DNA from: Octopus vulgaris
Lineage: Eukaryota
DNA length: 64,000 nucleotides
Assembly: GCA_951406725.2 (NCBI GenBank)
Contig: OX597821.1
Coordinates: 1,178,001-1,242,000 of the forward strand
Direction of reading: 5' to 3'
Shown: positions 5,263 to 55,515 of the stretch, one piece after another
Layout of the letters: each line of letters begins with the position of its first letter
Position numbering within the stretch: position 1 is the stretch's first letter
Made by a program: the position numbers and the translations under genes
Notes under the pieces: generated by a model
Databases searched by the model: none
Seen by the model: the letters and a program-made list of their open reading frames with translations, nothing else
Told to the model about the DNA's origin: nothing

Positions 5263-7941
5263 TTTTTTTCTTTTTTCTAGTTTCAGCTCAGAGCTGCGGC
5301 CATGCTAATGCACCGCCGTTTTGTGCTACACTGTTATTGCGAAGAACCTCGTCTAATATGTGGCACTTGTTGAAGAATGGAGTTTGATATAGCTACTCTC
5401 ATTTGCACCCCCTGCCGTGATGTAGGTTCATCTGGTACTCTTGACAGGAAGATGTTCAGTTTTGATTTTAAAATGCTACATCTACTTTGTGCAAGTTCCT
5501 CAGACTCTTTGGGATAATATTAAAAAGATGTGGGCCCTTGAAACCCAGGCTGTTGCAGAAGCTGGTCCTGAAGCGTGATGGTATTGCTGGGATCTTTGGC
5601 ACCATGCAGTGTCGTCCCGTTCTAGCATTGGTGTAGCTTACAATGTCAAAATTTGGTACAATTCCTTCAAGGATCTTCCAGACATATATTACTGCATACC
5701 TCTCCCGTCTTCTCTCCGGGGAGTAGAGTATTAGCTGTTTCAACCTTTCCCAGTAGCTGAGCTGTTGCAAAGAGACGATCTTCTTTGTGAATCTTTTCTG
5801 GATTGCTTCAAGGTCCGCTGTTAATTTCACACTGGTGGGTGACCATAGCTGTGAGCAGTAATCCAGGCGACTGAAGACGAATGTCCGCCAGAGAACCATC
5901 ATGGTTTCCTTATCTCTGGTTCTGAATGTTCTTAGGATCCACCCAGCCAGTCGTCTGCACTTTGTCGCCTTCCTGGTAATGTGCCCTTGGAAAGAGGTAT
6001 CATCACTCATGTCGATACCCAGGTCCCTCACAGACTTAGGCTCTGGGATTGAAATTCATTGTGGACCGGTGTATCCTGTAAGTTTAATATTCAGTTTTGG
6101 ATGCTGGTAGCGCAGGGCCTGGAATTTTTCAGCATTAAAATGCATATTATTATCCTAAGTCCATCTGTAGATTGAGTCCAACTCCTGCTGCAGGTGTGCA
6201 ACATCGCTGGAGTTCTGTATTTTCTGCGAGACTTTCGTATCGTCTGCATACCAGGCCAGAGTGGCTATCCGGTCATTTGAGGGCATATCTGAGAGGGCCA
6301 CTATAAAAAGCAGTGGTCCCAAGACAGTGCCCAGTGGAACACCGCTCACTATTTGTGTGTTCATAGAGGTGGCTCCATTAACCACTGTAGCCTGACTCCT
6401 ATCTTTCAGGAAGTCATGCAACCACACTCCAAGTTTTCCAACTATGTCGAGGTCACGTAGTTTGTGGCATATCATACCATGATCCACCTTTTCAAAAGCT
6501 TTTGCAAAATCAAGGTAGATTACGTCCACATTTGATTTGTTGAGTAATTGCCTCAACACCCAGTCATAATGCTGTAAGAGCTGGGTCAGGCAGCTCCTAC
6601 CTGGTCAAAAACCATGCTGAGTATTACTCAGCAAGTTATTTTCCTCAAGGAATGTGATTAGTTTCTTTCTGACTATCCATTCCATTACTTTACTGATGTG
6701 TGAAGTCAGAGAGATAGGACTATAGTTTTTGGCATCTGCTCTACTTCCCCCTTTATGTATTGGGCATATTATTCCCTCCTTCAGCTTACTTGGCAGTTTG
6801 CCATTCGCAAGAAAGCTCTGGAAGAGAATCTTGAGGGGTTTTGCCAGGGCATGCTTACACGTTTTGAGGAGGATGGCTGGGAAACCATTTGGACCAGCAG
6901 CTGAGTTTGTGTCCACTTAGTCTATGGCTAGTAGGACATCTTTTTCGCTTATGTCAATACATTCTATTGTAACCGCCTCGCTGGTTCCAACGCGGTGGTA
7001 AAGACACTTTTGAACTGGTCATTCAGCATCTCACTGATCTTAGTTGGACTGTCTGTGAGGGAGCCATCCTTTTGGAGGAGGGAGCCATCCTTTTGGTGGA
7101 GGGGTCCTATCTTGTAGTGCACTGAGACTGTTTCTTTCGCGTAATGAAAGAAGGCCTTTGGGTTTGATTTAATGTTTTTTATAACCCAGGCTTCTTTGTC
7201 TGCTTTCTCCTTCACATAGGATTGTTGCAGCCTTTTTTCGATCTCCATCAGTGTTATTTTTAGGCGGGACGTTTCGCTACTTTTGGGATGTTGGTTGAGA
7301 CGATTTGCAACCTTCGTCCGTCGTCTCATGAGGATCTTCCTGTCTCTTGGAATCTTCCTCCTATTTGTTTTAGCCTTGTGCTCTGGGACATATTTCTGGC
7401 ATACGGCTTGCACAGTAGACATGAAACATTCTAGTTTCATGTCAATGTCTGGTGTGGAGAGACATTCCGGCCAGTCCTCTCTGAGCATCTCTTTTTGGAT
7501 CGATTTCCAATCTGCTTTGTGGAAGTTCAGACTGGAGAGATTTCGGGTGCTTCCTTTAGGCTGTACGTCTCTGGTTACTTTTGGCCCAAACATAGACAGC
7601 TCTATTATGTTGTGATCCGAAACTGATGTCGGTGTCACTTTCACATCATGAATGATGTCCATATTGTTCGTGAAGCAGAGATCCAGAATGTTATTCACCC
7701 TAGTCGGCTTGAGTACAACTTGCTCCATGAATAAGGCATTGGTGAGGTTGAGCACGGACTCCACCTGTACTTGCTTGCAATGATTCATTCCTGAGAGTAT
7801 GTGACCTTCGGGCCATTTGACGTTGGGGAAGTAGAAATCACCCATAAGAAATATGTTCACGTGGTGTTCCAGATTCATGATGATTTCTTTAATTTTTGTG
7901 AGGCAATCTTCAAACTTGCCTGTAATCGAATACACAGCATC
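5261..7941 (-). mobile_element. 5'-truncated, degraded CR1-group LINE, family B (APE C-terminus, RT, 3' end)
   Basis: ORFs with FLMGDFYFP, LDLCFTN, SDHNII, YLDFAKAF, YADDTK; A-rich tail; ~48-bp deletion near 6988 relative to the 33.9-kb copy; 21-bp duplication near 7058-7100. Confidence 0.92.
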
Positions 7942-8057
7942 AAAACAAACGGAGGATTCATTCAAATTATTTTATTTTCATCTATATATGTACAACTGAC
8001 GTTGAATTTGTCCAAATCCATGTAAGAAATCTTACCTGTTTGAAATCTTAGAGGTTT

Positions 8058-25328: not shown

Positions 25329-25979
25329 ATGGCAAGAAACTGGTCTGCGAGAGAGGTGCAATTGTTCGTCCGCGCTTGGAAGATCGCTGAGGACGACTCG
25401 CCGAACGACATTATTGCTGCGGCGCTGAAAAGCAACAATTTTTCGAGAACCACCGCCCAGATAGAGCGAAAGAAGACAGAAGTTATCCGTTCGTACGCTC
25501 TAATCAGGCAACATGTGGACACCCTGGACATCATCCTGGGAGGTGACGGCAGCAGGGAGGGCCAAAAGGATGAGGAAAGCATCCAGAGCCAAATGGAGAA
25601 GCCTGGAACACAGGGAAACGATGACACATGTCCAGCTTCCAACACCACAACTGAAGACCAAAGAGGTGCGATGGCCGCAAGAAAGGAAAGGCACCCTGGA
25701 ATTGATGGGAAGCAGGAGGTAAAGGGTGACAGAATCAAGGCTAAAGGAAGCCCTGTCCAGAGAAAGCAGAGGGACCCCAGCAAAAACTGTAAGGGCAGGG
25801 AAAGAAACACCTGCAAATTCTACCTGAGGGGGACTGCTGGTACGGCGTTGAAGGTGCAAACTGTCGCTTTGCACATCGGAGGCCCTACCAAAACCGCACG
25901 GACGCGAGACAGAGGTCCCTCCCTCAGGGAGAACAAAAACAAAAACAAAAAGTTAAAAGAAGGGAAAAAAGCGCACTGA
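25329..25979 (+). pseudogene. LINE ORF1 with Myb/SANT-like N-terminus and frameshifted CCCH zinc finger
   Basis: WSAREVQLFVRAW...IAAAL...SRTTAQIERK; restoring one G at ~25830 gives CKFYLRGDCWYGVEGANCRFAH. Confidence 0.6.
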
Positions 25980-26005
25980 CCACTACTGAAAGACGGTATG
26001 CAGAT

Positions 26006-29000
26006 GTGGTGCGCGGAAACCCAACAGGTGGCCAGCTTCACCCAGATGTGAGAAGGGCGGCAGCTGAACAGCAGTCTTTTTTGTGCATGGCACAAAAAAT
26101 TGTTCAGCAGCTGACCTGGCTACAAGCACAAAGCTGGAACTACCACCACATAAGGCCACCTCCAACAGATGCAGGATGGCCACCACAGACACCAACACCA
26201 CACACACACACAAAAATATTTCTACTGAATGTAGGAGGGCTGCTGCGCGGAAACTGTAAAAAGAAAATTTCATTCCTGAGAGACCTTGTGACATGCAATC
26301 AAGCTATATGCATGGCACTCACAGAAACGCATCTTGAACCCGATATAGGTGATGCAGAAATACACATGCCGCAATATGCAGTCATACGCACAGATAGAAA
26401 AGGGAGGAGCCATGGTGGAGTTGCAATGTACATCCGAGATGACCTCACGCCCCAGGTCCTGCTGTCATATTCAAACTCAGTATGTGAAACTCAAATTGTA
26501 CACATAAGACAACTGAATATCGTCATATGCACTACATATCGCCCACCAGACGCCCCAAAACACTCAGGCATGTTTGAAGACTGCCTAACAAAAATAGGAG
26601 AAGTCCTCACCAACCTTGAACAGCACAACAGTGTATTCTTCATGGGTGACTTTAACCTCCCCAATGTGGAATGGCCTGGGGGGCAGATGCTCCCAGGGAT
26701 GACACACCATCAGCAGACACAGGTAGAGTCCCTGCTCCATCTCACAAATACCTCTTTCATGGAGCAAATAGTTCTGCAACCAACAAGGGCAGATAATATA
26801 CTGGATCTCTGCTTCACAAACAATATGGATATTATCCATAATGTTAATGTGATGCCGACAATGATCTCGGATCACAACATAATAGAGCTGTCTATGTATG
26901 GAACAAAAGCCCCCGCAGACACACAGCCTATACGAAGCACCTACCATCTCTCCAACTTAAACTTTCATAAAGCCAACTGGAAGTCGATTGAGAAAGAGAT
27001 CCTCAAACAGGATTGGCCTGAATGTCTCTCCACACCGGACATAAACATGAAACACAAACACTTCATGTCCATAATACAAGCCATATGTGACAAATATGTC
27101 CCAATGTGCAGGGCCAGCACACACAAGAACAAAAACAGGATCCCTAGAGAAAGGAGGATTCTTATGAGACGACGGACAAGGATTGCAAACCGCCTGAGCA
27201 AGCACACCAAAAGTGGTGAGAAGTCTCGGCTCAAAAGAATGCTAATGGAAACTGAGAAAAGTCTACATCAGTCCCATGAAAAGGAGAGAGCAGATAAAGA
27301 AGCTTGGGTAATAGAAAATATAAAATCAAACCCTAAAGCTTTCTTTAAGTTTGCCAAAGAGACAGCCACAGTGCACCAGAGAATAGGACCTCTCTTCCAA
27401 AAGATGGCTCTCTCACAGGAAATCCCACGAGGATAAGTGAAATACTGAACGAACAGTTCCAAAGTGTGTTCACTACACCTCTAGGACACAGGCAAGTAAA
27501 CAACCCAGAAGAATTCTTTGCCACTTTACCAGCGGCCAAAGAGACAAAAATTGAGTACATCAACATCGAAGAAGATGATATCACACTAGCCATTGATGAG
27601 ATTGACACAAACTCAGCTGCTGGACCTGATGGATTCCCAGCGATCCTTCTCAAATCGTGCAAACGAGCCCTTGCAAAACCGCTACAGCTTCTTTTTCAGA
27701 GCTTTCTTGCAAGTGGTAAGCTCCCAGTCAAACTGAAAGAGGGGGTAATATGCCCTATCCATAAGGGAGGTAGCAGAGCAGATGCTAAAAATTATAGGCC
27801 TATCTCTCTGACCTCACACATCAGCAAAGTCATGGAACGAATAGTCCGTAAGAAACTAATCATGTTCCTTGAAGAAAATGACTTACTGTCTGACACCCAG
27901 CATGGATTTCGACCAGGTAGAGGCTGCCTAACACAGCTCCTGCAACACTATGACTGGGTGTTGAAACAGCTACTAAATGGCTCAAATGTGGATGTAATAT
28001 ATCTTGACTTTGCAAAAGCCTTTGATAAAGTCGACCATGGTATGATCTGTCACAAACTGCGTGGTCTCGGCATAGGCGGGAAACTTGGAGAGTGGCTGCA
28101 CAACTTCCTAAAAGACAGAAAACAGGCAGTTGTGAGCAATTGAGCCACCTCCAGGGAAACGCAAATAACAAGCGGTGTCCCACAGGGCACTGTCTTGGGG
28201 CCACTGATGTTCATAGTGGCCCTTTCAGACATGCCTTCAGTTGCTACGATGACCACCCTTGCTAGCTATGCAGATGACACAAAAGTCTCCCACGCAATAC
28301 AAAACCCTGAAAATATTGCGCATCTGCAACATGAGCTGGACACAATATACAGGTGGGCTGAGGACAACAACATGCAGTTTAATGCAGGTAAGTTCCAGGC
28401 CCTGCGCTACTGGCACACAAAGGTAAATGACGTGAAGACTGGATACACTGGCCCAGGAAGAATTGCAATCCCTGAGTCAAAATCAGTGCGTGACCTGGGC
28501 ATTGACATGAGCAATGATGCATCTTTCCAAATGCATATTGCTAATCTGGTGATAAAATGCAGACGGCTAGCTGGATGGATTCTCCGAACTTTCAGAACAA
28601 GAGAGAAGGAGACACTGATGGTCCTATGGAAAACATTTGTCCTCAGCCGCTTGGACTACTGCTCCCAACTTTGGTCACCACACAATATAAAACAAACAGC
28701 AGAACTCGAAGCAACTCAGAGAAGCTACACAAAGAAAATCGTCTCAATGCAAAATGTCAGCTACTGGGAAAGACTGAAGGTATTAAACCTCTTCTCCCTG
28801 GAGCGGAGGCGGGAGAGATATGCAGTGATATACATCTGGAAAATCCTGGAGGGTCTTGTCCCAAACTTTGGCATTCAAAGTTACTCCAACCGCAGAACGG
28901 GCGCCGCTGCGTGGTGCCAAGGATTCCAACATCACCATCAAAATACAGGTCCAGATACTGCAACAGCTTGGGTTTCAGAGGACCACAGCTCTTTAACATC

Positions 29001-29183
29001 CTCCCTAAATGCCTGAGAGACTTACATGGTGTGGATGTGGGTTTCTTTAAAACTAAACTGGATCTCTTCTTGTTGGGAGTCCCAGATGAACCTACCTCAC
29101 GACAGGAGACACGGATGCGGGCAGCAGCATCGAACTCCCTTGTTGATCAAGTGCCACGTATCAGAGGTGGATTCACAAACTAG
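26006..29183 (+). pseudogene. LINE ORF2, APE endonuclease plus reverse transcriptase, broken into 4 ORFs
   Basis: ORFs 26006-27436, 27466-28143, 28195-29016, 28557-29183. Confidence 0.92.
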
Positions 29184-30525: not shown

Positions 30526-31201
30526 GAGTGCTTAAGCTCAGGTTGGTCCTACAGAGTGGCACAGCTACGATTATCCCCGTCTATGCCCCACAAGCGGGAC
30601 TACTAAATGATCAGAAGGACCACTTTTACGATACCCTTCAACAGGCTACCTCAAAGACTAGTGGCAAGGACCTCATCTTTGTGGGTGGAGACTTCAATGG
30701 GCATATTGGACGGGAATCGGGTATCTTCTTTGGGGTGCACGGTGCCCATGGTATTGGCACCAGAAATGATGAGGGAACTAGACTACTGGAATTTTGTGAT
30801 GCATGTAACCTTTTAATCTGCAACACTAACTTCAGGAAGCCTGACTGCCACCTTATAACCTATCAGTCAGGAGACTCCACTAGTCAAATAGACTTCATCC
30901 TCACCAGACAGCGGGATGCAGGGTCGCTCTTAAATACAAAGACCCTCCCGGGTGAAAAATGTATCCCTCAGCATAGGCTAATCATCAGTGACTTTAAGCT
31001 TGAGGCTAGAAGGACTCCAAGAAACAAACCAATCCAGAAAAGAAGGATTTGGAAGCTAAAGAATCCTTCACGTGGTCAGAGATTTAGGGACATCCTCATC
31101 AAAAAATTTGATGAGAGGGAGGATGAGCTTCAGACGTCGGACATAGAAGGTAGCTGGGAATTCCTACGGGACAGCTTGCTGAGTGCCACAGACCTAGAGT
31201 T

Positions 31202-33274
31202 ATGTGGTGGTGGAATAGTGCAGTAGACAAAGCCATTAGTGCAAAGAGACGGGTCTGGAAAGCCTGGAGGGATGGGGGTAGCAGGGAACTGTACCAGGTA
31301 GCCAAAAGGGAGGCTGGGCGGCAGGTATACATAGCCAAAGATGTAGCAGAAAAGAAGAAGTTTACCAATGTTCAGCGACGTGAGGACCAAAGAGCTGAGG
31401 TATTTCGGATTGCCAGACAGTGTGTGAGAGAAAATAGTGATGTTACAGGAGAGAAATGTGTCCGCATGGATGATGGGGCACTTGCTTTTACTGTTGGTGA
31501 AAAGAAAGAGGCTTGGAGAAGCCATTATGAAAGACTGCTGAATGAGGAGAATGAATGGGAGGAGGAGAGCCTGCCAAATGTTGACCCAATAGAGGGACCA
31601 GCTACCCGAATAGACAGCTCCCTTGTAGTAAAGGCAATTAAGGATATGAAACCAGGTAAAGCCCCCGGCCCATCAGGAATCACTGCTGAGATGCTTAAAA
31701 CAGCTGGTTATGTGGGCCATGGCCTAGTCACCCGCATTGTAAACCAGGTAGTTCATAATGGAGTCATACCCAATGACTGGCGTAGCAGCACCATAGTCAA
31801 CTGCTACAAGGGTAAGGGTGATGCTCTAGATAGAAATAACTACAGGGGTATTAAACTGTTGGATCAGGTGATGAAGGTCACAGAGATGGTCATAACCCAT
31901 CTCATTAGGGAGAGAATTTGCTTAGACGAGGTGCAGTTCGGTTTTGTGCCAGGTAGAAGCACCACTGATGCTATATTCCTGGTCCGACAACTGCAGGAGA
32001 AGCACCTAGCTAAAGATAAACCCCTCTACATAGTTTTTGTGGATTTGGAGAAAGCCTTTGACAGGGTTCCCCGATCCCTTATCTGGCGGTCGATGCGGAA
32101 ACTGGAGATTGACGAATGGCTAATAAGGGCTGTACAGGCTCTATACAGAGAGGCTGTCAGCAAGGTTAGGATTGGCAACGAATATAGTGAAGAATTCCGG
32201 GTAGAAGTAGGTGTACACCAAGGCTCAGCCCTCAGTCCCCTTTTATTCATCATAGTCCTCCAGGCAATAACAGAGGAATTCAAAACAGGATGCCCCTGGG
32301 AGCTCCTCTATGCTGATGACCTAGCTCTCATAGCAGAATCACTACCGGAACTAGAAAAGAAATTTCGAGTGTGGAAGCAAGGGTTAGAATCAAAGGGCCT
32401 TAGAGTAAATGTAGCAAATACCAAAGTTATAGTAAGCAGAAAGGCGAACTCAGCACACACACCCTCGGGCAGGTGGCCCTGCTCGATCTGTAGGAAAGGT
32501 AGAAACTCCATAAGATGCACCCAATATAAGTTATGGACGCATAAGAGGTGCAGCAACATTAAAGGGATATTAACTGATAAGACAGATTTCATGTGCGGCA
32601 GATGCACAGGGACAATAGACACCACAGACACTCAGAAAACAGATTCCATCACACTCCAGGGGGAGAAACTAGAAGTAGCTGATAGTTTCCGCTACCTGAG
32701 TGACCAAGTTAGTAGTGGAGGTGGATGCTCAGAGAGTATCACCACTAGAATACGAATAGCTTGGGCAAAGTTCAGAAAGCTCCTACCCCTACTGGCGACA
32801 AAGGGTTTCTCGCTCAGAGTGAAAGGTAGATTGTATGATGCATGTGTGCGAACTGCCATGTTTCACGGTAGTGAAACATGGGCTGTGACTGCAGAGGACA
32901 TGCGTATACTTGAAAGAAATGAAGCTAGCATGATCCGCTGGATGTGTAATGTCAGTGTGCACGCACGACAGAGTGTAAGCACCCTGAGAGAAATGCTGGA
33001 CATAAGAAGCATCAGATGTGGTGAGCGAGAGCGACGCTTGCGATGGTATGGTCATGTACTGCGGATGGATGAGGAGAGATGTGTGAAGAAGTGCCATTCC
33101 CAAACAGTTGAAGGTATCAGGGGGAGAGGTAGACCCAGGAAGACATGGGATGAGGTAGTCAAGCATGACCTCAGAGCGTCGGGCCTAACTGAGGCAATGG
33201 CGAAGGACCGAGATCTCTGGAGATATGCTGTGACTGCAAAGACTCGGGCTGCTTCCTGCATCAGTTCCGCATAG
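31202..33274 (+). CDS. RTE reverse transcriptase ORF (690 aa, open) with Cys-rich insertion
   Basis: Full set of RT motifs; separated from APE ORF 30528-31226 by a frameshift or deletion. Confidence 0.85.
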   Translation: MWWWNSAVDKAISAKRRVWKAWRDGGSRELYQVAKREAGRQVYIAKDVAEKKKFTNVQRREDQRAEVFRIARQCVRENSDVTGEKCVRMDDGALAFTVGEKKEAWRSHYERLLNEENEWEEESLPNVDPIEGPATRIDSSLVVKAIKDMKPGKAPGPSGITAEMLKTAGYVGHGLVTRIVNQVVHNGVIPNDWRSSTIVNCYKGKGDALDRNNYRGIKLLDQVMKVTEMVITHLIRERICLDEVQFGFVPGRSTTDAIFLVRQLQEKHLAKDKPLYIVFVDLEKAFDRVPRSLIWRSMRKLEIDEWLIRAVQALYREAVSKVRIGNEYSEEFRVEVGVHQGSALSPLLFIIVLQAITEEFKTGCPWELLYADDLALIAESLPELEKKFRVWKQGLESKGLRVNVANTKVIVSRKANSAHTPSGRWPCSICRKGRNSIRCTQYKLWTHKRCSNIKGILTDKTDFMCGRCTGTIDTTDTQKTDSITLQGEKLEVADSFRYLSDQVSSGGGCSESITTRIRIAWAKFRKLLPLLATKGFSLRVKGRLYDACVRTAMFHGSETWAVTAEDMRILERNEASMIRWMCNVSVHARQSVSTLREMLDIRSIRCGERERRLRWYGHVLRMDEERCVKKCHSQTVEGIRGRGRPRKTWDEVVKHDLRASGLTEAMAKDRDLWRYAVTAKTRAASCISSA

Positions 33275-33851: not shown

Positions 33852-35670
33852 TTCTTTTTTTTTTCTAGTTTTAGCTCAGAGCTGCGGTCATGCTGATGCA
33901 CCACCGCTTTGTGCTACACTGTTATTGCGAAGAACCTCGTCTAATATGTGGCACTTGGTGAAGAATGGAGTTTGATACTGCTACTCTCATTTGCACCTCT
34001 TGCCGTGAGGTAGGTTCATCTGGGACTCCTGACAGGAAGATGTCCAGCTTTGATTTAAAACCGCCACATCTACTTTTTGCAAGTTCCTCAGACTCTTTGG
34101 GAGAATATTAAAAAACTGTGGGCCCTTGAAGCCCAGGCTGTTGCAGAAGCTGGTCCTGAAGAGTGATGGCATTGCTGGGATCTTTGGCACCATGCAGTAT
34201 CGTCCCGTTCTAGCATTGGTGTAGCTTACAATGCCAAAATTTGGCACAATTACTTCCAGGATCTTCCAGACATATATTACTGCATACCTCTCTCGACTTC
34301 TCTCCAGGAGTAGAGTCTTAGCTGTTTCAACCTTTCCCAGTAGCTGATCTGTTGCAAAGAGACGATCTTCTTTGTGAATCTTCTCTGGATTGCTTTAAGG
34401 TCCGCTGTTAATTTTACACTGGTGGGTGACCATAGCTGTGAGCAGTAATCCAGGCGGCTGAGGACGAATGTCCGCCAGAGGACCATCATGGTTTCCTTAT
34501 ATCTGGTTCTGAATGTTCTTAGGATCTACCCAGCCAGTCGTCTGCATTTTGTCGCCATCCTGGTAATGTGCACTTGGAAAGAGGTACCATTACTCATGTC
34601 GATACCCAGGTCCCTCACTGACTTAGGCTCTGGGATTGAAATTCCCTGTGGACCGGTGTGCCCTGTAAGTTTAATATTTAGTTTTGGATGCTGGTAGCGC
34701 AGGGCCTGGAATTTTTCAGCATTAAACTGCATATTATTATCCTCAGCCCATCTGTAGATCGTGTCCAACTCCTGCTGCAGTTGGGCAACATCGCTGGGGT
34801 TCTGTATTTTCTGCGAGACTTTCGTATCGTCTGCATAGATGGCCAGAGTGGCTATCCGGGCATTTGAGGGCATATCTGAGAGGGCCACTATAAAAAGCAG
34901 TGGTCCCAAGACAGTGCCCCGTGGAACACCGCTCACTATTTGTGTGTTCATAGAGGTGGCTCCATTAACCACTACTGCCTGACTCCTATCTTTCAGGAAG
35001 TCATGCCACCACACTCCAAGTTTTCCAGCTATGTCGAGGTCACGCAGTTTGTGGTATATCATACCATGATCCACCTTGTCAAAAGCTTTTGCAAAATCAA
35101 GGTAGATTACGTCCACATTTGATTTGTTGAGTAACTGCCTCAACACCCAGTCATAATGCTGTAAGAGCTGGGTCAGGCAGCTCCTACCTGGTCGAAAACC
35201 ATGCTGGGTATCACTCAGCAAGTTATTTTCCTCAAGGAATGTGATTAGTTTCTTTCTGACTATCCGTTCCATGACTCTGCTGATGTGTGAAGTCAGAGAG
35301 ATAGGCCTATAGTTTTGGCATCTGCTCTACTTCCCCCTTTATGTATTGGGCATATTATTCCCTCCTTCAGCTTGCTTGGCAGTTTGCCATTCGCAAGAAA
35401 GCTCTGGAGGAGAATCTTGAGGGGTTTTGCCAGGGCATGCTTACACGCTTTGAGGAGGATGGCTGGGAAACCATTTGGACCAGCAGCTGAGTTTGTGTCA
35501 ACTTCATCTATGGCTAGTAGGACATCTTTTTCGCTAATGTCAATACATTCTATTGTAACCGCCTCGCTGGTTACAGGTGAGGCGGCAAAGAAGTCCACTG
35601 GTTCGTTCACTTGTCTGTGTTCCAACGTGGTGGAAAAGACACTTTTGAACTGGTCATTCAGCATCTCACC
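33852..35670 (-). mobile_element. 5'-truncated CR1-group LINE, family B (second copy)
   Basis: Collinear and highly similar to 5261-7035; RT ORF 34526-35272. Confidence 0.92.
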
Positions 35671-36169
35671 GATATGAAATGTGGAGGGGGAGAAAGCAAG
35701 CAGCCGTCGAAGATATTTGTGGACTGATGACGTCAAAGAACGAGGTGGAAACAAGAGCCTTTGTTGATTGTATGAATATAAGAGAACAGAGATAACTGGG
35801 GTGTTTTGGTAAGCCGACCTTTGGAAATAGGGAGGACATTTGGATAGCTGATGGCTGCATGAACCCTTGTTCCTCCCTCGTTTGACAATGAAAGTTTAGG
35901 TGTTCGCTCAACTGAATTACCTGCTGATTGAATTAACCTTTAAGTGACTGAGTATTCCACTGACAGGTGTACTCTTAAAGAAATTCTCAAGCAGAATGGT
36001 CAGGAGATAGTGTTTGGGATAAGACTGGACCTAGAATTCAAAAGGCACAATGTAAAACAGGTTTCTGTACAGTTTCCATAAAACTTTCACACATTTGCCG
36101 AAAATTCTACGCCGTGTGACTGAAATCAAAACTACATGATTGCAAAGCGACCTTTTTAGTCATTCGACC

Positions 36170-44720: not shown

Positions 44721-45803
44721 CAAAAAACAAAACAAAAAACAAAACAAAATTGTTTGGTTGAAAGTGAAAGTGAAAGTGAAAGAAGGTAAGTAAATAAATA
44801 AATAAGTAAATAATAGATGCAAAGAAACTAGGGAAAAAAAGAGGAAAAGACGTAAAGTCATGATTGATCTTTGCCAGATAATTAAGTGCAAAATAAAAGG
44901 AGCGGAGAAGATCGACGCAGAGGAGGGGAGAACCGTAGAACCCATAACATGACAAAATACAGTGAACGGTCAACAATAAACTGACACTGTTATCCATAGT
45001 TAGAAAAATATATAATATAATATATCATATATTATGTATATATATTATATAATATAATATATTTATATATATATATATATAGTGTATTATAATAAACTAT
45101 ATATGTATATAGTGTATTATAATAAATCTCTCACCGAGATGTAAACAGTAAGCGTTCGACAGCGTAAAGTATACTAGGCATCGCAATATGGCTAACCACT
45201 AGGGGTGGGTGTTACTGTAGCTTTTAGCCCCAGGAGATCATCGTCTCCAGCTGGCTTTAGACACAATTCCTGTGCCCTTATGACATTCGCAAAGGGAGGT
45301 CATCCCCTCTCGAAAACCTAAATGATACGCATAAGGACACAGGAATTGTGTCTAAAGCCAGCTGGAGACGATGATCTCCTGGGGCTAAAAGCTACAGTAA
45401 CACCCACCCCTAGTGGTTAGCTATATTAAGATGCCTAGTATACTTTACGCTGTCGAGCGGTTCCTGTTTACATCTCGTTCAGAGATTTATTATTGCTTTC
45501 AGACCGTTTTTCGAAATCAGTGACAGTGGTTGCTGGGAAAAACATTAAATAAATATTCGCAAAAAGGTCTCTCCTCATCGAAAACCGGTGTTTTGACTCG
45601 TCTGCGTATTGAGAAGTTAGCTCCCTATTTTGTTGAGTGAGTTCGTTTTTTGTTCGTCGTTGTTTGTGTTTGCTCGTGAATTGTTGTCCGTTGTGTGACA
45701 GTAATTTTCGCCCTACGGGGCTAAAAATTCTGTGTATAAACATTGTTATTACCTTCGGGGTAATTTTTTGTTTTTTGAAAAATTGGTTCTCATAATTTGA
45801 GAA

Positions 45804-47153
45804 ATGGAGTTCGACTTGGCGTCGAGGAGCGACTTTCCCGTGATGGGAAAAGGGAAACAGAAGGATATCGAGGTTAAAAAACAGTCTTTTTCGGCCACAG
45901 TGGGCGGAACCATAACGGAAGTAGAATTTAAAATAGAACAGTTGTTCGAATACCGGAACTTGGTAAAAAAGGAAGGCAACGAAATTAAACTGGTACCGCC
46001 GCAAGCGATATTACAGGAAATAAAGGTTAAGACAGTCGTATACAAGGTTTACAGTAACAAAGAGAAAAAAATAATGGACGTGAAGAACAAAATAGTAGAG
46101 AAGTGCTTGTCCCCGGTGTGGAGCAAAATTCGCTACGTCGGTCGAGGTACCCGCAGCGCTACCGTTGAAGCACATTTCGACTCGGCTGATGTGGCAATAG
46201 AGACTTCATCGATGACCTTAAAAAGTGAGGACATCATGTTACTACCTACATATATGGGAAAAAGAACTGCGAAACTATATGTGGAAGACATTCCAAGAGG
46301 ATATGATATAATGTGGGTAGCAGCGGCGGTTCTGCACGACGTAGAGCAGAAAGTCTCAATTCTGCAGATGAAAAGGAAAGAGGGGGTAAACTGGAAGGGA
46401 CAAGTGCTCGAACTCCTCGTTCAAGCAGAAAATAAGGTGCTAGAAAACTTACCCGATAGGGTATTTATTGAGGAGGGAATTACAATGAGAGTATCAGTGG
46501 AGGGGCGCAGTCCTAGGTGTTTCAAATGTGGTGAAAAGGGTCACGTCCGCTCGAACTGCATAAAAAAAAAGAGAAACAGCGAAGCCCCTCCTCAAAGTGC
46601 TTCAAACACAGAAAAAGAAAAGGCGAAAAAAGACCCCAAGACTGCGACAAGGAAGGGAATCGAAACGGAAGATAAAAATGAACAAATGGAATTTACACAG
46701 GTGACACACAAAAGAAAAAAAGAAAATACCCTGGACTCCCCTCCCCAAACAAAGAAAAAATCAGCAAACACCGCAGAGATACATACAAAACAAATTCCCC
46801 AGCCCTACCCCCACGGCACTGTATTCATTGGAACACAGTTCGCCAAGCCCCACCCTATAAAACAAGATTGGAAAAAATTGATTTAAAAAAATGAAAAGGT
46901 TGTAGCATTCGACGAGAAAAATGATAGAGTGTTCAAGTATTTTAAATTTTCAAAACTGAAATTATTCAGTAAGTCTGCAGACACTAAGTCGACCACTCGT
47001 TTTGCAAAAATAAAGGAAGACGAGTGGAAGGATAAAACAATCCAAGAACATTTAAAAAATAACCTTATCAGAGACGTTACTAACGAAATACTGGAGGGCA
47101 AACTTACTATAACCCTACACACCTACCCAGAGCCCGATGGCAACGCTGGTTAA
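45804..47153 (+). CDS. Tx1 ORF1 (gag-like, CCHC knuckle); probable frameshift at ~46886
   Basis: CFKCGEKGHVRSNC; ORF 46929-47153 is the likely continuation. Confidence 0.8.
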
Positions 47154-47254
47154 GAGCCCTGCAGCTACGACCACAAGGGAGGAAGATTTAAATGCAGATT
47201 TAAACTGTCATGCTCCCTGTCTCAACAGTAAGTTTTTTTTCTCTCTCTCCGACA

Positions 47255-50200
47255 ATGGCTAAGCTGGGTTGTGTGAATGTGCGTGGAATGGGGTCGAAAT
47301 AGAAACAAATTTGTCTCCTGGACGACCTCACGACACACAGAGTGGACGTAGCTATTGTAACCGAGTCCAAGATGAACGGGGCCCAAGCGTTCTCGCCTCT
47401 TCTAAATGGTTTCGAGAAATTTATTTCTCCTAGCCGAGGAGGAGGAAGGGGCGTGGCAGTCCTTATCAGGAAGAGCTTGGACTTGCAGGTAAGTACTGTC
47501 TTTCTGGACCCAGAAGGCAGGCTGGTCGTTCTGGATGTGACCCACGTAAGTAAACAGTCCTTCAGGTTGGTAGCTGTCTACGCTCCGAATGAGAATAGGC
47601 AGTCGGGTTTTTTTCGGAATCTGGAGCACTTTTTAGTGACGTCGAAAACGGTAGTCTTAGTAGGGGACTTTAACACTGTCCTCGAAGCGCAGGTCGACAG
47701 TGTTGGCTCAACCAATAGGAAGGAGAACCCTAGCCTCAAGGGTCTACTAGAGAGCTTTAATCTAGTAGACCGTTATCGACTGGATGAGCCGAGCGTTCCA
47801 CAGTGGACGTGGAGTAACAACGACGGCTCACGCAGATCGTATATAGATAGGATATTCGTTAGGAAAAGAGATAAGGATACGTTTAGTTGTCCACAGTTTC
47901 ACATTGTGCCTTACACGGATCACAAATTTGTGACTTGTAGGGTGCAATTAGATAAGTGTCATAGACAGGGACCCAGGTACTGGAAGCTGAACAAGTCTAT
48001 TTTGAATTGTGAAGACTTTCGTACCCGGATTAAGGTGTTAGTACAGAGGGCATTGTGTGGCACCATCATTAACAATAGATGGCGGCACTCCCTCAAAAGA
48101 GCCATTCATTCAGAGTCCATTAGATTTAGCAATCAGCTAAGGTTAGATAGGTCTAGGATAGAGGACGATTTAGTTAAGAATCTAAACGAGGCAATGGAAT
48201 CTGGCTCTGCATCCGGAGTGATGGCGGCAAGGACGGTATTGTACCATCACCTTAACTCCAAACACGAAGGTTGCAGAGTTAGAGCTAAGCTACGCGCAGA
48301 GAAACGAGAAGGTATTAACGTTGCCGGATGGGCCCGTCGAGTGGAGAGTCAGAGAGGCAACAAAGCTTCAATCAAGTCTTTAACTGACGAACAGGGACAC
48401 AAGATCTATGGACAGGAGGAGATGCAAATGTTTCTTCACCAGCATTTCGCCCGCGCGTTCAGGGGTGGTGGTTCGCTGGAGCGGGGGAGGGCCTTAAAGG
48501 ACTTCCTAGCCGGCGGACCGCGGCTCTCGGGGCGTGAGGTGGAGTGCTGTGAAGGAGCGATCACTCACGCGGAGATAGAGGGGCTACTGGCCAGATGCGC
48601 CGGGGAGAAGTCGCCGAGGCTGGATGGTCTGCCCTACGAGTTTTACCAAAGTATGCCGGACTTGTTCGGGGGAATACTGGCAGGCGTCTACGCGAACTGG
48701 CAGCAGAACGGGAGAATTCCCAGTTCTGTAAGCCGGGGAGTGGTGACGCTAATCCAGAAAGACCCGAGCAAAGGAGATAACATTAGTAATTACAGGCCCA
48801 TAACTCTACTTAATGTAGAGTTAAAGATTTTGGCCAAGGTGTTGGCAAAAAGGTTGACGACTGTCGTGGAGAAACTTGTAGGGAAAGCACAGACATGTGC
48901 AATTCCAGGCAGGTCGATCCAGGACAATCTTCACCTTATACGCTATACCTTAGATAGGGTGGGTAAATTAACCGGCAAGGGCGGGGTAATGGTCCATTTA
49001 GACCAAAGTAAAGCGTTCGATAGGGTAGACCATAAGTACCTGGCGACGGTCCTCGAAGCGGCTGGACTGGGCCCTGAATTTCTTGGGTGGATCTCCGCAA
49101 TGTATAGCGGCATCAAGTCCACCGTCCAGATAAACGGTTACCTAACGGAACCGTTTTCGATCGAATGTTCAGTTCGTCAAGGGTGCCCCTTGTCACCACT
49201 TTTGTACGTGTTGGCTCTCGAGCCATTGCTGCGAAAGTTGGAGAGGCTGGGAAGTAACCCGGATGAGATCGGAGGCAGGAGGACGGTTTCTGCTTATGCG
49301 GATGACGTCACCCTCATCGTGTCCAATGAGGCTCAACTACCTTGTGTAGAAGATGCTATCAGAGGATACGAGGCGGTGGCAGGAGCAAAAGTTAACAAGG
49401 ACAAGTCGATTGGCTTACGCCTCGGCACCTGGAGGAGCAAGTCGATATCGTCCGGTGCCGTGGGACACTGGACAGATGGTCCTGTTAAGTTGCTAGGAGT
49501 TTGGTTTGGGCCAGAGGTGGAGGCCATAGTACGGACCTGGTCCGGAAGGTTTCTGTCCTTGAAAGGAAGGGCGGAGGTGGTACAGATGTTTATTGCATCT
49601 GTAATCACTTACCGCCTGACCGTTGTCCCTTGTCCCCGATTCATGGCTTAGCAAGTTGGAGCGAATCCTTTTCCGCTTTTTGTGGAAGGAAGGAAAGCCA
49701 CTTGTGAGGCGCTCCGTTTGCTGCCAGGAACCGTTAAAGGGTGGGTTAGGAATGCCTTGGTTGATGATGCGCAGACATGCGCTGAGGCTGAAGCATCTCT
49801 GGCACCACCTGGAGGGTGATAAGGTGTGGAGTCCGCTGGCAGGGGAATTTTTCCCGAGACCGGCTTCCTTAGTGAATTTTAAAACCGGTTACATCAAAAG
49901 ACGGAATCTGACTTTATGGCAAAAGGAGTGTCGACAGGCACTCACGCTGATCCACAAGGCGGACAAGGCCGGCTGCGGAAATACCACCTCGGTATTTTAT
50001 AGCAGGCTGGTAGAGGCAAAGAACGACGACGTTTTTAGGAGGGGCTCTGGGGTTCGACGAAGACCAGCTTACCAACCTGTTTAAAAAGACTTTCAGGACG
50101 GGGAATTTGGATAATTTCCAGAGATCCCTGGCCTGGCAGTGTTATAGGAATGCTTTACCTGTTCGCGAGAAGTTATCGCGGCACGGAATTTCAGTGCCAC

Positions 50201-50607
50201 CGACATGTCCAAGATGCGGGTTGGAGGATGAAACCGTCCAGCACGCTTGTGTACACTGTCGGCAGTTGTCAGACTTGATAAGTTACGCAGAACACATGTT
50301 ATCGCATCTGGGACGAGTACAGCTGTCGGCTGAGTCTATGATTAAGATGATACCGCCAACTGGACTCTCGAAGGAAGGTGAGGCATGTTTTCACTGCACG
50401 GTTGCAGTTGTAAAAGAATGCATGTGGCGTACAAGAATGGAAGGAGTCACAATAGGATCCTTTGTCTCAGGCCCCGGCTTGCTCACTTACTTCAGATATC
50501 ATCTGAATAACAAAATGGGGCTGGAAAAGAAGACCTTACCACGAGGTGTGTATGAAAAAAGATGGAAGGAAGTGGCGAAAAAGGTGGGTGTCAGAAACCC
50601 AGTTTAA
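47255..50607 (+). pseudogene. Tx1 ORF2 (APE plus RT plus C-terminal zinc finger) with one stop and two frameshifts
   Basis: MAKLGCVNVRG start then a stop at ~47300; VYAPN, GDFN, SYIDRI, TDHK, YWKLN, YRPITLLN, SVRQGCPLSP, AYADD, GGLG, CPRC...ETVQH...C. Confidence 0.92.
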
Positions 50608-50879
50608 CTATGGATGGAGAAGAGGAAAGGAAAGCTGCGGGTCCTTATAGGTTGCCGGGGTTTAAAATATATCGGTAATATTTCAATCTAATGTAATGTT
50701 ATATTAGTCAATGCAAAGGACAATTTAAATACAGTTTTTTGTATAATGAATAATCCATATATTTTGGAAATTTTTAAACGGACCACTTAACTGTTTTTTG
50801 TATGTATGTCCTGTATTGTTCTTCTATGTACTGATTTTATAATCATAATAAAGAATTACTCATCGAAAACCGGTGATTA

Positions 50880-50926
50880 GCGCATGTTGACAAGAGACAA
50901 TAATCTCGAAACTGCAGTCCATGCGT
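50880..50926 (+). ncRNA. Degenerate minimal type I hammerhead
   Basis: gcgcatg TTGACAA gaga-caataa-tctc GAAAC tgca GTC catgcgt; all three stems pair; core is two transitions from CTGACGA. Confidence 0.72.
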
Positions 50927-51067
50927 ATCACTTAGGTTTTCGAGAGGGGATGACCTCCCCTTGCGAATATCATAAGGGCATAGGAATTGGTCTAAAGCCA
51001 GCTGGAGACGATGATCTCCTACGTAACACCCACCCCTAGTGGTTAGCCATATTGAGACGGCTAGTAT

Positions 51068-51140
<73 letters not shown>

Positions 51141-51459: not shown

Positions 51460-51935
51460 GCGGAGGGGTCTAGTCGATTAGATCGACCCCAGTACGCAAC
51501 AGTTACTTAATTTATCGACTCCAAAAAGATTAAAGGCAAATGGACCTCGGCGGAATTTGAACGTAGACAAGCGAATTCTACTCTAAGTACGAGGCCTGAA
51601 ATTTTTGGGGAGGGTGGACAGTTGATTAGATCGACCCCAGTACGCAACAGTTACTTAATTTATCGACTCCAAAAAGATTAAAGGCAAATGGACCTCGGCG
51701 GAATTTGAACGTAGACAAGCGAATTCTACTCTAAGTACGAGGCTTGAAATTTTTGGGGAGGGTGGGCAGTCGATTTGATCGACCCTAGTACGCAACTGGT
51801 ACTTAATTTATCGACCCTAAAAAGATGAAAGGCAAAGTCGATCTCGGGCGAATTTGAACTCAGGACGTGAAGGCAGATGAAATACCGCTAATCATTTTGC
51901 CTGGCGTCCTAACACTGCTGCCAGCTCGCCGCCTT
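51460..51935 (-). mobile_element. Octopod-type SINE with ~148-bp internal tandem duplication
   Basis: ttagatcgaccccagtacgcaacagttac at 51478 and 51626. Confidence 0.8.
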
Positions 51936-52252
51936 ATACATAAATAAATAATAAATGCGCCCTTTTAAAGCCTAGCCAGGCTCATGGGTCCGGTTTCCTG
52001 GTTTCTATGTCGTATGTGTTCCTCAGCTGGACGGGACGCCAGTCCATCGCAGCATTACTCATTTTTGCCAGCTGAGTGGACTGGAGCAACGTGAAATGGA
52101 GTGTTTTGCTCAAGAACACAACGCGTCGCCAGGAATCGAAACCACAATCTTACGATCATGATGCTGACACCCTAACCACTAAGCCTCGCGCCTCCACCTT
52201 ATACATACATATATATTATATATTGTAGGACAGCAGCCAAGTGCAGCAGAGA

Positions 52253-55029: not shown

Positions 55030-55515
<486 letters not shown>

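Follow-up and report, generated by a model that had tools for sequence, protein, structure and literature searches.

An L1/Tx1-type LINE family of Octopus vulgaris targets a fixed site in a hammerhead retrozyme, likely the start of an snRNA-type promoter

A window of 64,000 nucleotides of the Octopus vulgaris genome, the whole stretch of DNA analysed here, contains a broken copy of an L1/Tx1-type LINE. The family of this copy inserts at a single fixed position in a ~355-nt hammerhead retrozyme, and we consider it probable that this position marks the start of an snRNA-type promoter, which the LINE likely borrows. The copy is bracketed by a 17-bp target-site duplication (TSD), CTCATCGAAAACCGGTG, which occurs exactly twice in the 64-kb window, cannot be extended on either side and encloses 5,268 bp. 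The original prediction had described an exact 17-bp TSD around a 5.27-kb element without poly(A), and this description was borne out, the LINE terminating in ...AATAAAGAATTA with no A-tail. ORF1 encodes a zinc knuckle and ORF2 an APE endonuclease, a reverse transcriptase (RT) and zf-RVT; ORF2 is interrupted by an in-frame stop (47300–47302) and by frame breaks near 49630 and at 50020–50080 (Table 1). A whole ORF2 was present in none of 36 full-length copies of the same subfamily (subfamily A), where the longest frame reached 906 amino acids.

Table 1 Features of the window LINE copy and the surrounding retrozyme (window coordinates).
Feature	Position	Strand	Evidence or remark
Inverted partial copy of the hammerhead repeat	45119–45331	-	blastn against array monomer, 91%
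Retrozyme sequence 5′ of the insertion, terminating in the 5′ TSD	45325–45590	+	87% to array monomer
ATCAGT, predicted snRNA-type proximal promoter element	45516–45521	+	61 nt before ATCG; putative function
5′ TSD, 17 bp	45574–45590	+	ATCG at 45577, predicted +1
5′ UTR, short, 213 nt	45591–45803	+	lacks 19 nt present in sister copies
ORF1 with CCHC zinc knuckle	45804–46886	+	PF00098, E 2.7e-4
ORF2: APE endonuclease, RT, zf-RVT	47255–50607	+	one stop and two frame breaks
3′ UTR; terminal GAATTA, no poly(A)	50608–50858	+	AATAAA at 50847–50852
3′ TSD	50859–50875	+	also 5′ arm of extended hammerhead stem I
Type I hammerhead: proximal stem I, U3-A8 core (50887–50893), stem II, GAAA, short stem III	50880–50926	+	descriptor match, covariation
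Predicted hammerhead cleavage, after GUC	50919	+	
Retrozyme part 3′ of the insertion, terminating in a (TA)n run	50876–51073	+	

Other decayed APE/RT LINE pieces lie elsewhere in the window (5468–7971, 25793–29016, 31154–33274 and 34526–35895) and are 21–29% identical to the window ORF2; the stretches 6089–6968 and 27549–28428 are inverted copies of one family. Abundant SINE-like repeats, found in tandem and as single copies, occupy 51460–51940 and 51954–52197, and we take them to be octopus tRNA-derived SINEs. A short tRNA-like repeat head at 55256–55509, forming an inverted pair around a (TA)n run, was the source of spurious microRNA matches.

The best solved relative of ORF2 was human L1 ORF2p (E 9e-53, against 2e-23 for R2), and only L1 and R2 proteins were matched. 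The element thus combines an L1-group ORF2 with a two-ORF layout, in which a zinc-knuckle ORF1 precedes an ORF2 with APE, RT and C-terminal zinc finger. None of 57 homologues was named Tx1, the closest named one being an Argonauta hypothetical protein at 48% identity. For a target-specific Tx1 LINE, Kojima's rule, as given in the accessible text, asks for over 20% of flanks to be shared; in the family studied here, target-specific insertion with a TSD was found at 47 of 47 subfamily-A ends.

The target is a ~355-nt unit that occurs in tandem or circularly permuted, as in one array with ten sites spaced 354–357 nt apart (L174), and often carries a 5′ inversion like that of the window copy, comparable inversions being present at several empty loci. 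A strict site pattern matched the genome 451 times and a loose one 2,996 times, 12 of the first 30 loose matches being the target repeat, which would put its total at roughly a thousand sites if this 30-site sample is typical. A type I hammerhead descriptor gave a single match in the window, with its core at 50887, a U3-A8 variant (TTGACAA). Rfam returned no match at E <= 10 for 50840–51070, no hammerhead among the 150 of 245 matches listed for the window, and no family at gathering score for three further loci (L193, L098 and L180). Across 29 copies, eight base pairs have changed in both partners, the exchange of C3-G8 for U3-A8 among them, a count that relatedness among the copies inflates and that comes from sites chosen by a pattern including the core; 91.8% of alignment cells were paired, versus 28–47% when the alignment was slid. 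We base the hammerhead identity on the descriptor together with the covariation, and its activity is predicted.

The original prediction placed the LINE 4 nt upstream of a hammerhead in a retrozyme-like repeat. The spacing is correct, as the proximal stem I does start 4 nt past the TSD. The TSD itself, however, forms the 5′ arm of an extended stem I (z = -5.2), so the LINE lies inside the repeat and not beside it. That the repeat is retrozyme-like was upheld by its tandem or permuted unit with a type I hammerhead, which matches the metazoan non-LTR retrozymes of PMC7229834 and bioRxiv 10.64898/2026.07.22.740005, as far as their accessible text describes them; these likewise consist of tandem or permuted type I hammerhead units (350–390 bp in mussel). 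Its 5′ inversions and variable ends would fit an origin from, or mobilization by, a Penelope-like element.

Targeting was assessed genome wide. A DNA search of the 2.8-Gb genome gave 205 candidates, of which 40 were scored; a pattern census blind to the flanks detected 42 exact 3′ ends, one more came from a 5′ search, and all searches pooled yielded 47 distinct 3′ ends of subfamily A, a count from which one copy with an altered end (L142) is left out. The same (A)TCG site adjoins all 47, which bears out the proposal that the family targets the retrozyme-like repeat; the unrelated flanks that would have spoken against it were seen at none of these ends. Beyond the site, 44 of the 47 continue into the ~355-nt hammerhead repeat and 3 into a TSD and another LINE stacked there. 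The usual TSD of the family is a 14-mer starting with ATCG, compared with which the 17 bp of the window copy are atypical. No target bases precede ATCG in 42 of the 47 3′ junctions, two to three extra ones do so in the other five, including the window copy, and an A-tail was found in none. Among individual loci, L094 and L119 (C2:109083800–109089700) form a tail-to-tail inverted pair, in which a full LINE with retrozyme faces a 213-nt LINE end with retrozyme, and L137 is a full-length copy with a nested retrozyme that bears its own related LINE. One sequencing contig (X19, organism E, depth 4.3) crosses the LINE 3′ junction minus three extra bases, its target side being too short for a bridge.

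Mean pairwise identity was 96% among the LINE ends and 80% among their targets, and target variants are scattered across the clades of the LINE tree, from which the subfamily-A insertions are shown, as judged by comparison of the copies, to be mostly independent. In a tree and TSD table built without L126, L142 and any copy that was truncated or nested, the 14-mers at the 5′ and 3′ ends were identical in 23 of 36 full-length copies, and these 23 represent several target variants. Among the 18 full-length copies with a target other than AAAACC, four had a 5′ TSD shifted to AAAACC and a local 3′ TSD, and the reverse shift (5′ local, 3′ AAAACC) was not seen in these 18 informative copies; the other nine mismatched pairs mostly resemble later decay. 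The four donor-type shifts fit a leader carried on the RNA. Copies truncated at the 5′ end (L111, L112, L135 and L136) have TSDs of their own, and three of the 47 ends (L092, L094 and L098) are short LINE 3′ pieces with retrozyme and no matching upstream target, which may be cargo copies.

Related elements share this preference to different degrees. In sister subfamily B, which shares ~81% identity across ORF2, 13 of 14 ends lie at the retrozyme site; the sole off-target end (L193/L260) is a short fragment within unrelated sequence. One LINE (L143) is a chimera that joins a 5′ end of subfamily A to a 3′ end of subfamily B. A ~1.6-kb element whose sole frame is ORF1-like and contains a zinc knuckle (L251, L252, L255 and L303–L318), likely a non-autonomous partner, stacks at the retrozyme site with 3 of its 16 ends; 11 ends are at a second hammerhead family, which begins AGCGACACC, and 2 elsewhere. 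At L254:1944–4700, a tandem array of a different, ~362-nt hammerhead repeat has a related LINE 3′ end joined at its start. A control LINE family, ~67% identical (L319–L343), has 183 exact 3′ ends in the genome; the retrozyme site was in none of 25 flanks read, most of which were another repeated, coding-like sequence. As this control does not use the retrozyme site, targeting is lineage-specific. Members of the control family often stand in tandem stacks.

What marks the site is suggested by the octopus snRNA genes. ATCAGT occurs at −57 to −61 in 20 of 20 U1 loci and 17 of 20 U2 loci, and 57–61 nt before ATCG at 39 of the 40 retrozyme sites that are occupied and at 25 of 30 others, compared with 0.3% of shuffles; a matrix built from seven U1/U2 promoters alone found its best site in the array monomer at −58. 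Given the equal distance of ATCAGT before U1, U2 and the insertion site, ATCG is likely the transcription start of an snRNA-type promoter, the motif evidence consisting of one 6-mer plus its AT-rich context. The U1/U2 clusters (C18:48.97–49.21 Mb, C23:43.31 Mb and C3:20.78–20.84 Mb) have several promoter types, of which ATCAGT is the sole common element. A divergent hammerhead family that is also targeted (L135) keeps ATCAGT at −58 and has lost the TTC context, and in the L254 hammerhead family, a target of related elements, the position around −60 holds only the weaker match ACAAGT. With one stacked junction and one occupied site dropped beforehand, ATCAGT was present at 39 of 39 occupied and 25 of 29 empty sites (Fisher p = 0.03), a comparison that cannot separate promoter from sequence reading because the motif-less sites mostly lack the whole upstream part.

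Two of the three U2 loci without ATCAGT have a LINE end directly in front, and these LINEs belong to a further sister subfamily, B2; no LINE stood in front of U1 at the 20 loci read. Of 13 B2 ends, nine are in retrozymes and four at U2 +1. All four U2 copies have the same order: the 14-bp U2 TSD, then ATCGCTACGTGGTG, then the LINE. The intervening 14-mer is one base off the retrozyme variant ATCGCTACCTGGTG used by relatives (L264, L265 and L268), and its six genome matches are the four U2 copies and two unrelated ones; the captured leader begins exactly at ATCG. Nested within the retrozyme copies of B2, the four U2 copies show no fixed endonuclease difference from them over 234 residues, and two of the four are 99.1–99.5% identical to the four closest retrozyme copies. 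The leader therefore looks like one capture starting at ATCG, which probably then spread among U2 genes, and not like four captures. The U2-resident copies lie on two chromosomes, behind two U2 promoter types, with no hammerhead 3′ of them. Because sister copies sit at U2 +1 in this way, the earlier targeting idea can be refined: the predicted transcription start of the repeat, and not its ribozyme, is the likely target.

In the mechanism we propose, the host promoter would transcribe the LINE from ATCG, giving an RNA that would start with the 14-nt 5′ TSD. Once target-primed reverse transcription has copied this leader into cDNA, the copy would pair with the upper strand of the next target at the second-strand step, as has been proposed for R2 (PMC3774820). 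This would produce uniform 5′ junctions and occasional donor-type 5′ TSDs, while at a mismatched new target such as U2 the whole leader would be captured. Because snRNA-type transcripts are not polyadenylated, the LINE would have no tail. The hammerhead would be a bystander that at most trims read-through RNA, and the endonuclease might find the site by DNA sequence, by promoter-bound factors or by both. Several observations weigh against this mechanism: the five subfamily-A junctions with two to three extra target bases, which pairing of the 3′ end does not predict; the donor-type 5′ TSD in only four of 18 informative copies; a leader that was probably captured once; the shortness of the shared motif and its weaker form in the L254 family; and the absence of a whole ORF2 from all 36 full-length copies. 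The accessible text of PMC3774820 describes a parallel in R2, which is transcribed from its 28S rDNA target and whose RNAs retain upstream 28S sequence at the 5′ end, leading to uniform 5′ junctions; we propose the same for the octopus LINE. In R2, however, the 5′ end is produced by an HDV-like ribozyme of the element itself, and the endonuclease is restriction-like, whereas for the octopus LINE a promoter start is proposed and the ribozyme lies downstream, in the host repeat. Co-transcription from the target is also raised as a possibility for SINEU in the available part of PMC4494074.

An alternative that we regard as unlikely is that the APE endonuclease reads a short DNA sequence in the retrozyme (about TTCATCG...GGTG), with the promoter incidental and the LINE using a promoter of its own. 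APE endonucleases do determine Tx1 target choice, according to the accessible text of PMC4494074, and the motif TTCATCG...CYGG is mostly retrozyme (12 of 15 TTC-type sites among 30 read); in one retrozyme variant, 7 of the first 8 bases are also those of U2, and sequence drift could therefore account for the switch. A looser motif that admits the U2-type TTT nevertheless has 2,996 matches, and no family copy was found at the 18 of the first 30 that were non-retrozyme. Moreover, the motif is broken in the targets of L135, L098 and U2 while the promoter spacing is kept in L135 and U2, and the exact ATCG start of the captured leader is against sequence reading.

We give little credence to a role for the ribozyme itself, whereby the hammerhead would cut read-through RNA about 45 nt past the TSD, leaving an RNA whose 3′ end has no tail and would pair with the target at the nick. 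The tail-less junctions and the covarying fold, including its C3-G8 to U3-A8 exchange, would suit such a role, as would an A at the L135 junction where the target has G and a T absent from the target at three B2 junctions, which fit target bases borne by the RNA. Yet the copies at U2 occur on two chromosomes and behind two promoter types with no hammerhead behind them, which disfavours the hammerhead as the target, and an intact core was present at only 25 of 42 occupied sites scored (6 of 48 rows having been dropped for want of a site match). Least credible is the amplification of one old insertion as a LINE–retrozyme composite, by the mobilizer of the retrozyme or by duplication. Although three of the 47 ends look like such cargo, the targets differ from one another far more than the LINEs do and show no link to the LINE tree, most TSDs match the local variant, the four truncated copies have their own, and different families are stacked at one site; with LINE and target trees not congruent, composite amplification is refuted for most copies.

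The insertion of Keno, a U2-specific member of the Tx1 clade, lies inside U2. For Dictyostelium TRE5-A and yeast Ty1 and Ty3, tethering to promoter factors sets the insertion position with respect to small-RNA promoters; these elements use Pol III tRNA genes, whereas tethering of the octopus LINE is purely hypothetical. Keno and Utopia, as covered in the accessible text of PMC4640811, resemble subfamily B2 in inserting in U2 genes, and B2 differs from them in its position at U2 +1, its 14-bp duplication and its recent descent from a retrozyme-targeting line. Published targets of Tx1 families include other transposons, U2, U5, 5S, satellites and microsatellites (PMC4494074 and PMC4640811, in the parts available), the satellite target appearing in a figure legend of the former. 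Xenopus Tx1L in Tx1D and crocodilian Tx1-Mar in Mariner-N4_AMi, both in the same accessible part of PMC4494074, are likewise two-ORF APE LINEs fixed within another mobile element; the octopus LINE differs from them in using a hammerhead retrozyme as its target, at a position that is also a predicted snRNA-type start of the kind found in U1 and U2.

LINE targeting of retrozymes was not found in the available text of PMC7229834 or of bioRxiv 10.64898/2026.07.22.740005; the words 'promoter' and 'snRNA' are absent from that of the latter, and 'promoter' appears in that of the former in two mentions of T7 constructs. Our literature search, with Repbase and most subscription journals outside its scope, found nothing linking Tx1 with retrozymes or retrozymes with a proximal sequence element, and neither 'hammerhead' nor 'ribozyme' occurs in the accessible text of a 2026 Octopus repeat annotation (PMC13282606).

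The octopus family belongs to a known kind of element but uses a new class of target, and its record of a target switch is unusually clean; hammerhead retrozymes thereby join the list of Tx1-type targets. Newt satellite 2 has been reported to have an snRNA-type promoter (PMC2220036, accessible text), and our observations suggest that a mollusc-type retrozyme uses one as well. Site-specific LINEs are known to change target over time, and the step is rarely caught; here, copies ~99% identical reside in two targets with the first 14 bases of the old target attached, so the respective roles of protein, promoter and RNA leader can be asked about directly. For site-specific gene insertion, too, a compact APE LINE with a promoter start as its landing site is of relevance. 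More tentatively, and as a possibility we would put somewhat short of an even chance, the lineage may target snRNA-type starts as a class through the promoter machinery, finish insertion with its own RNA leader and hop between retrozyme families and U2 with its endonuclease unchanged, in which case the U2 copies would be the frozen record of a hop and the retrozyme an abundant reservoir of snRNA-targeting LINEs.
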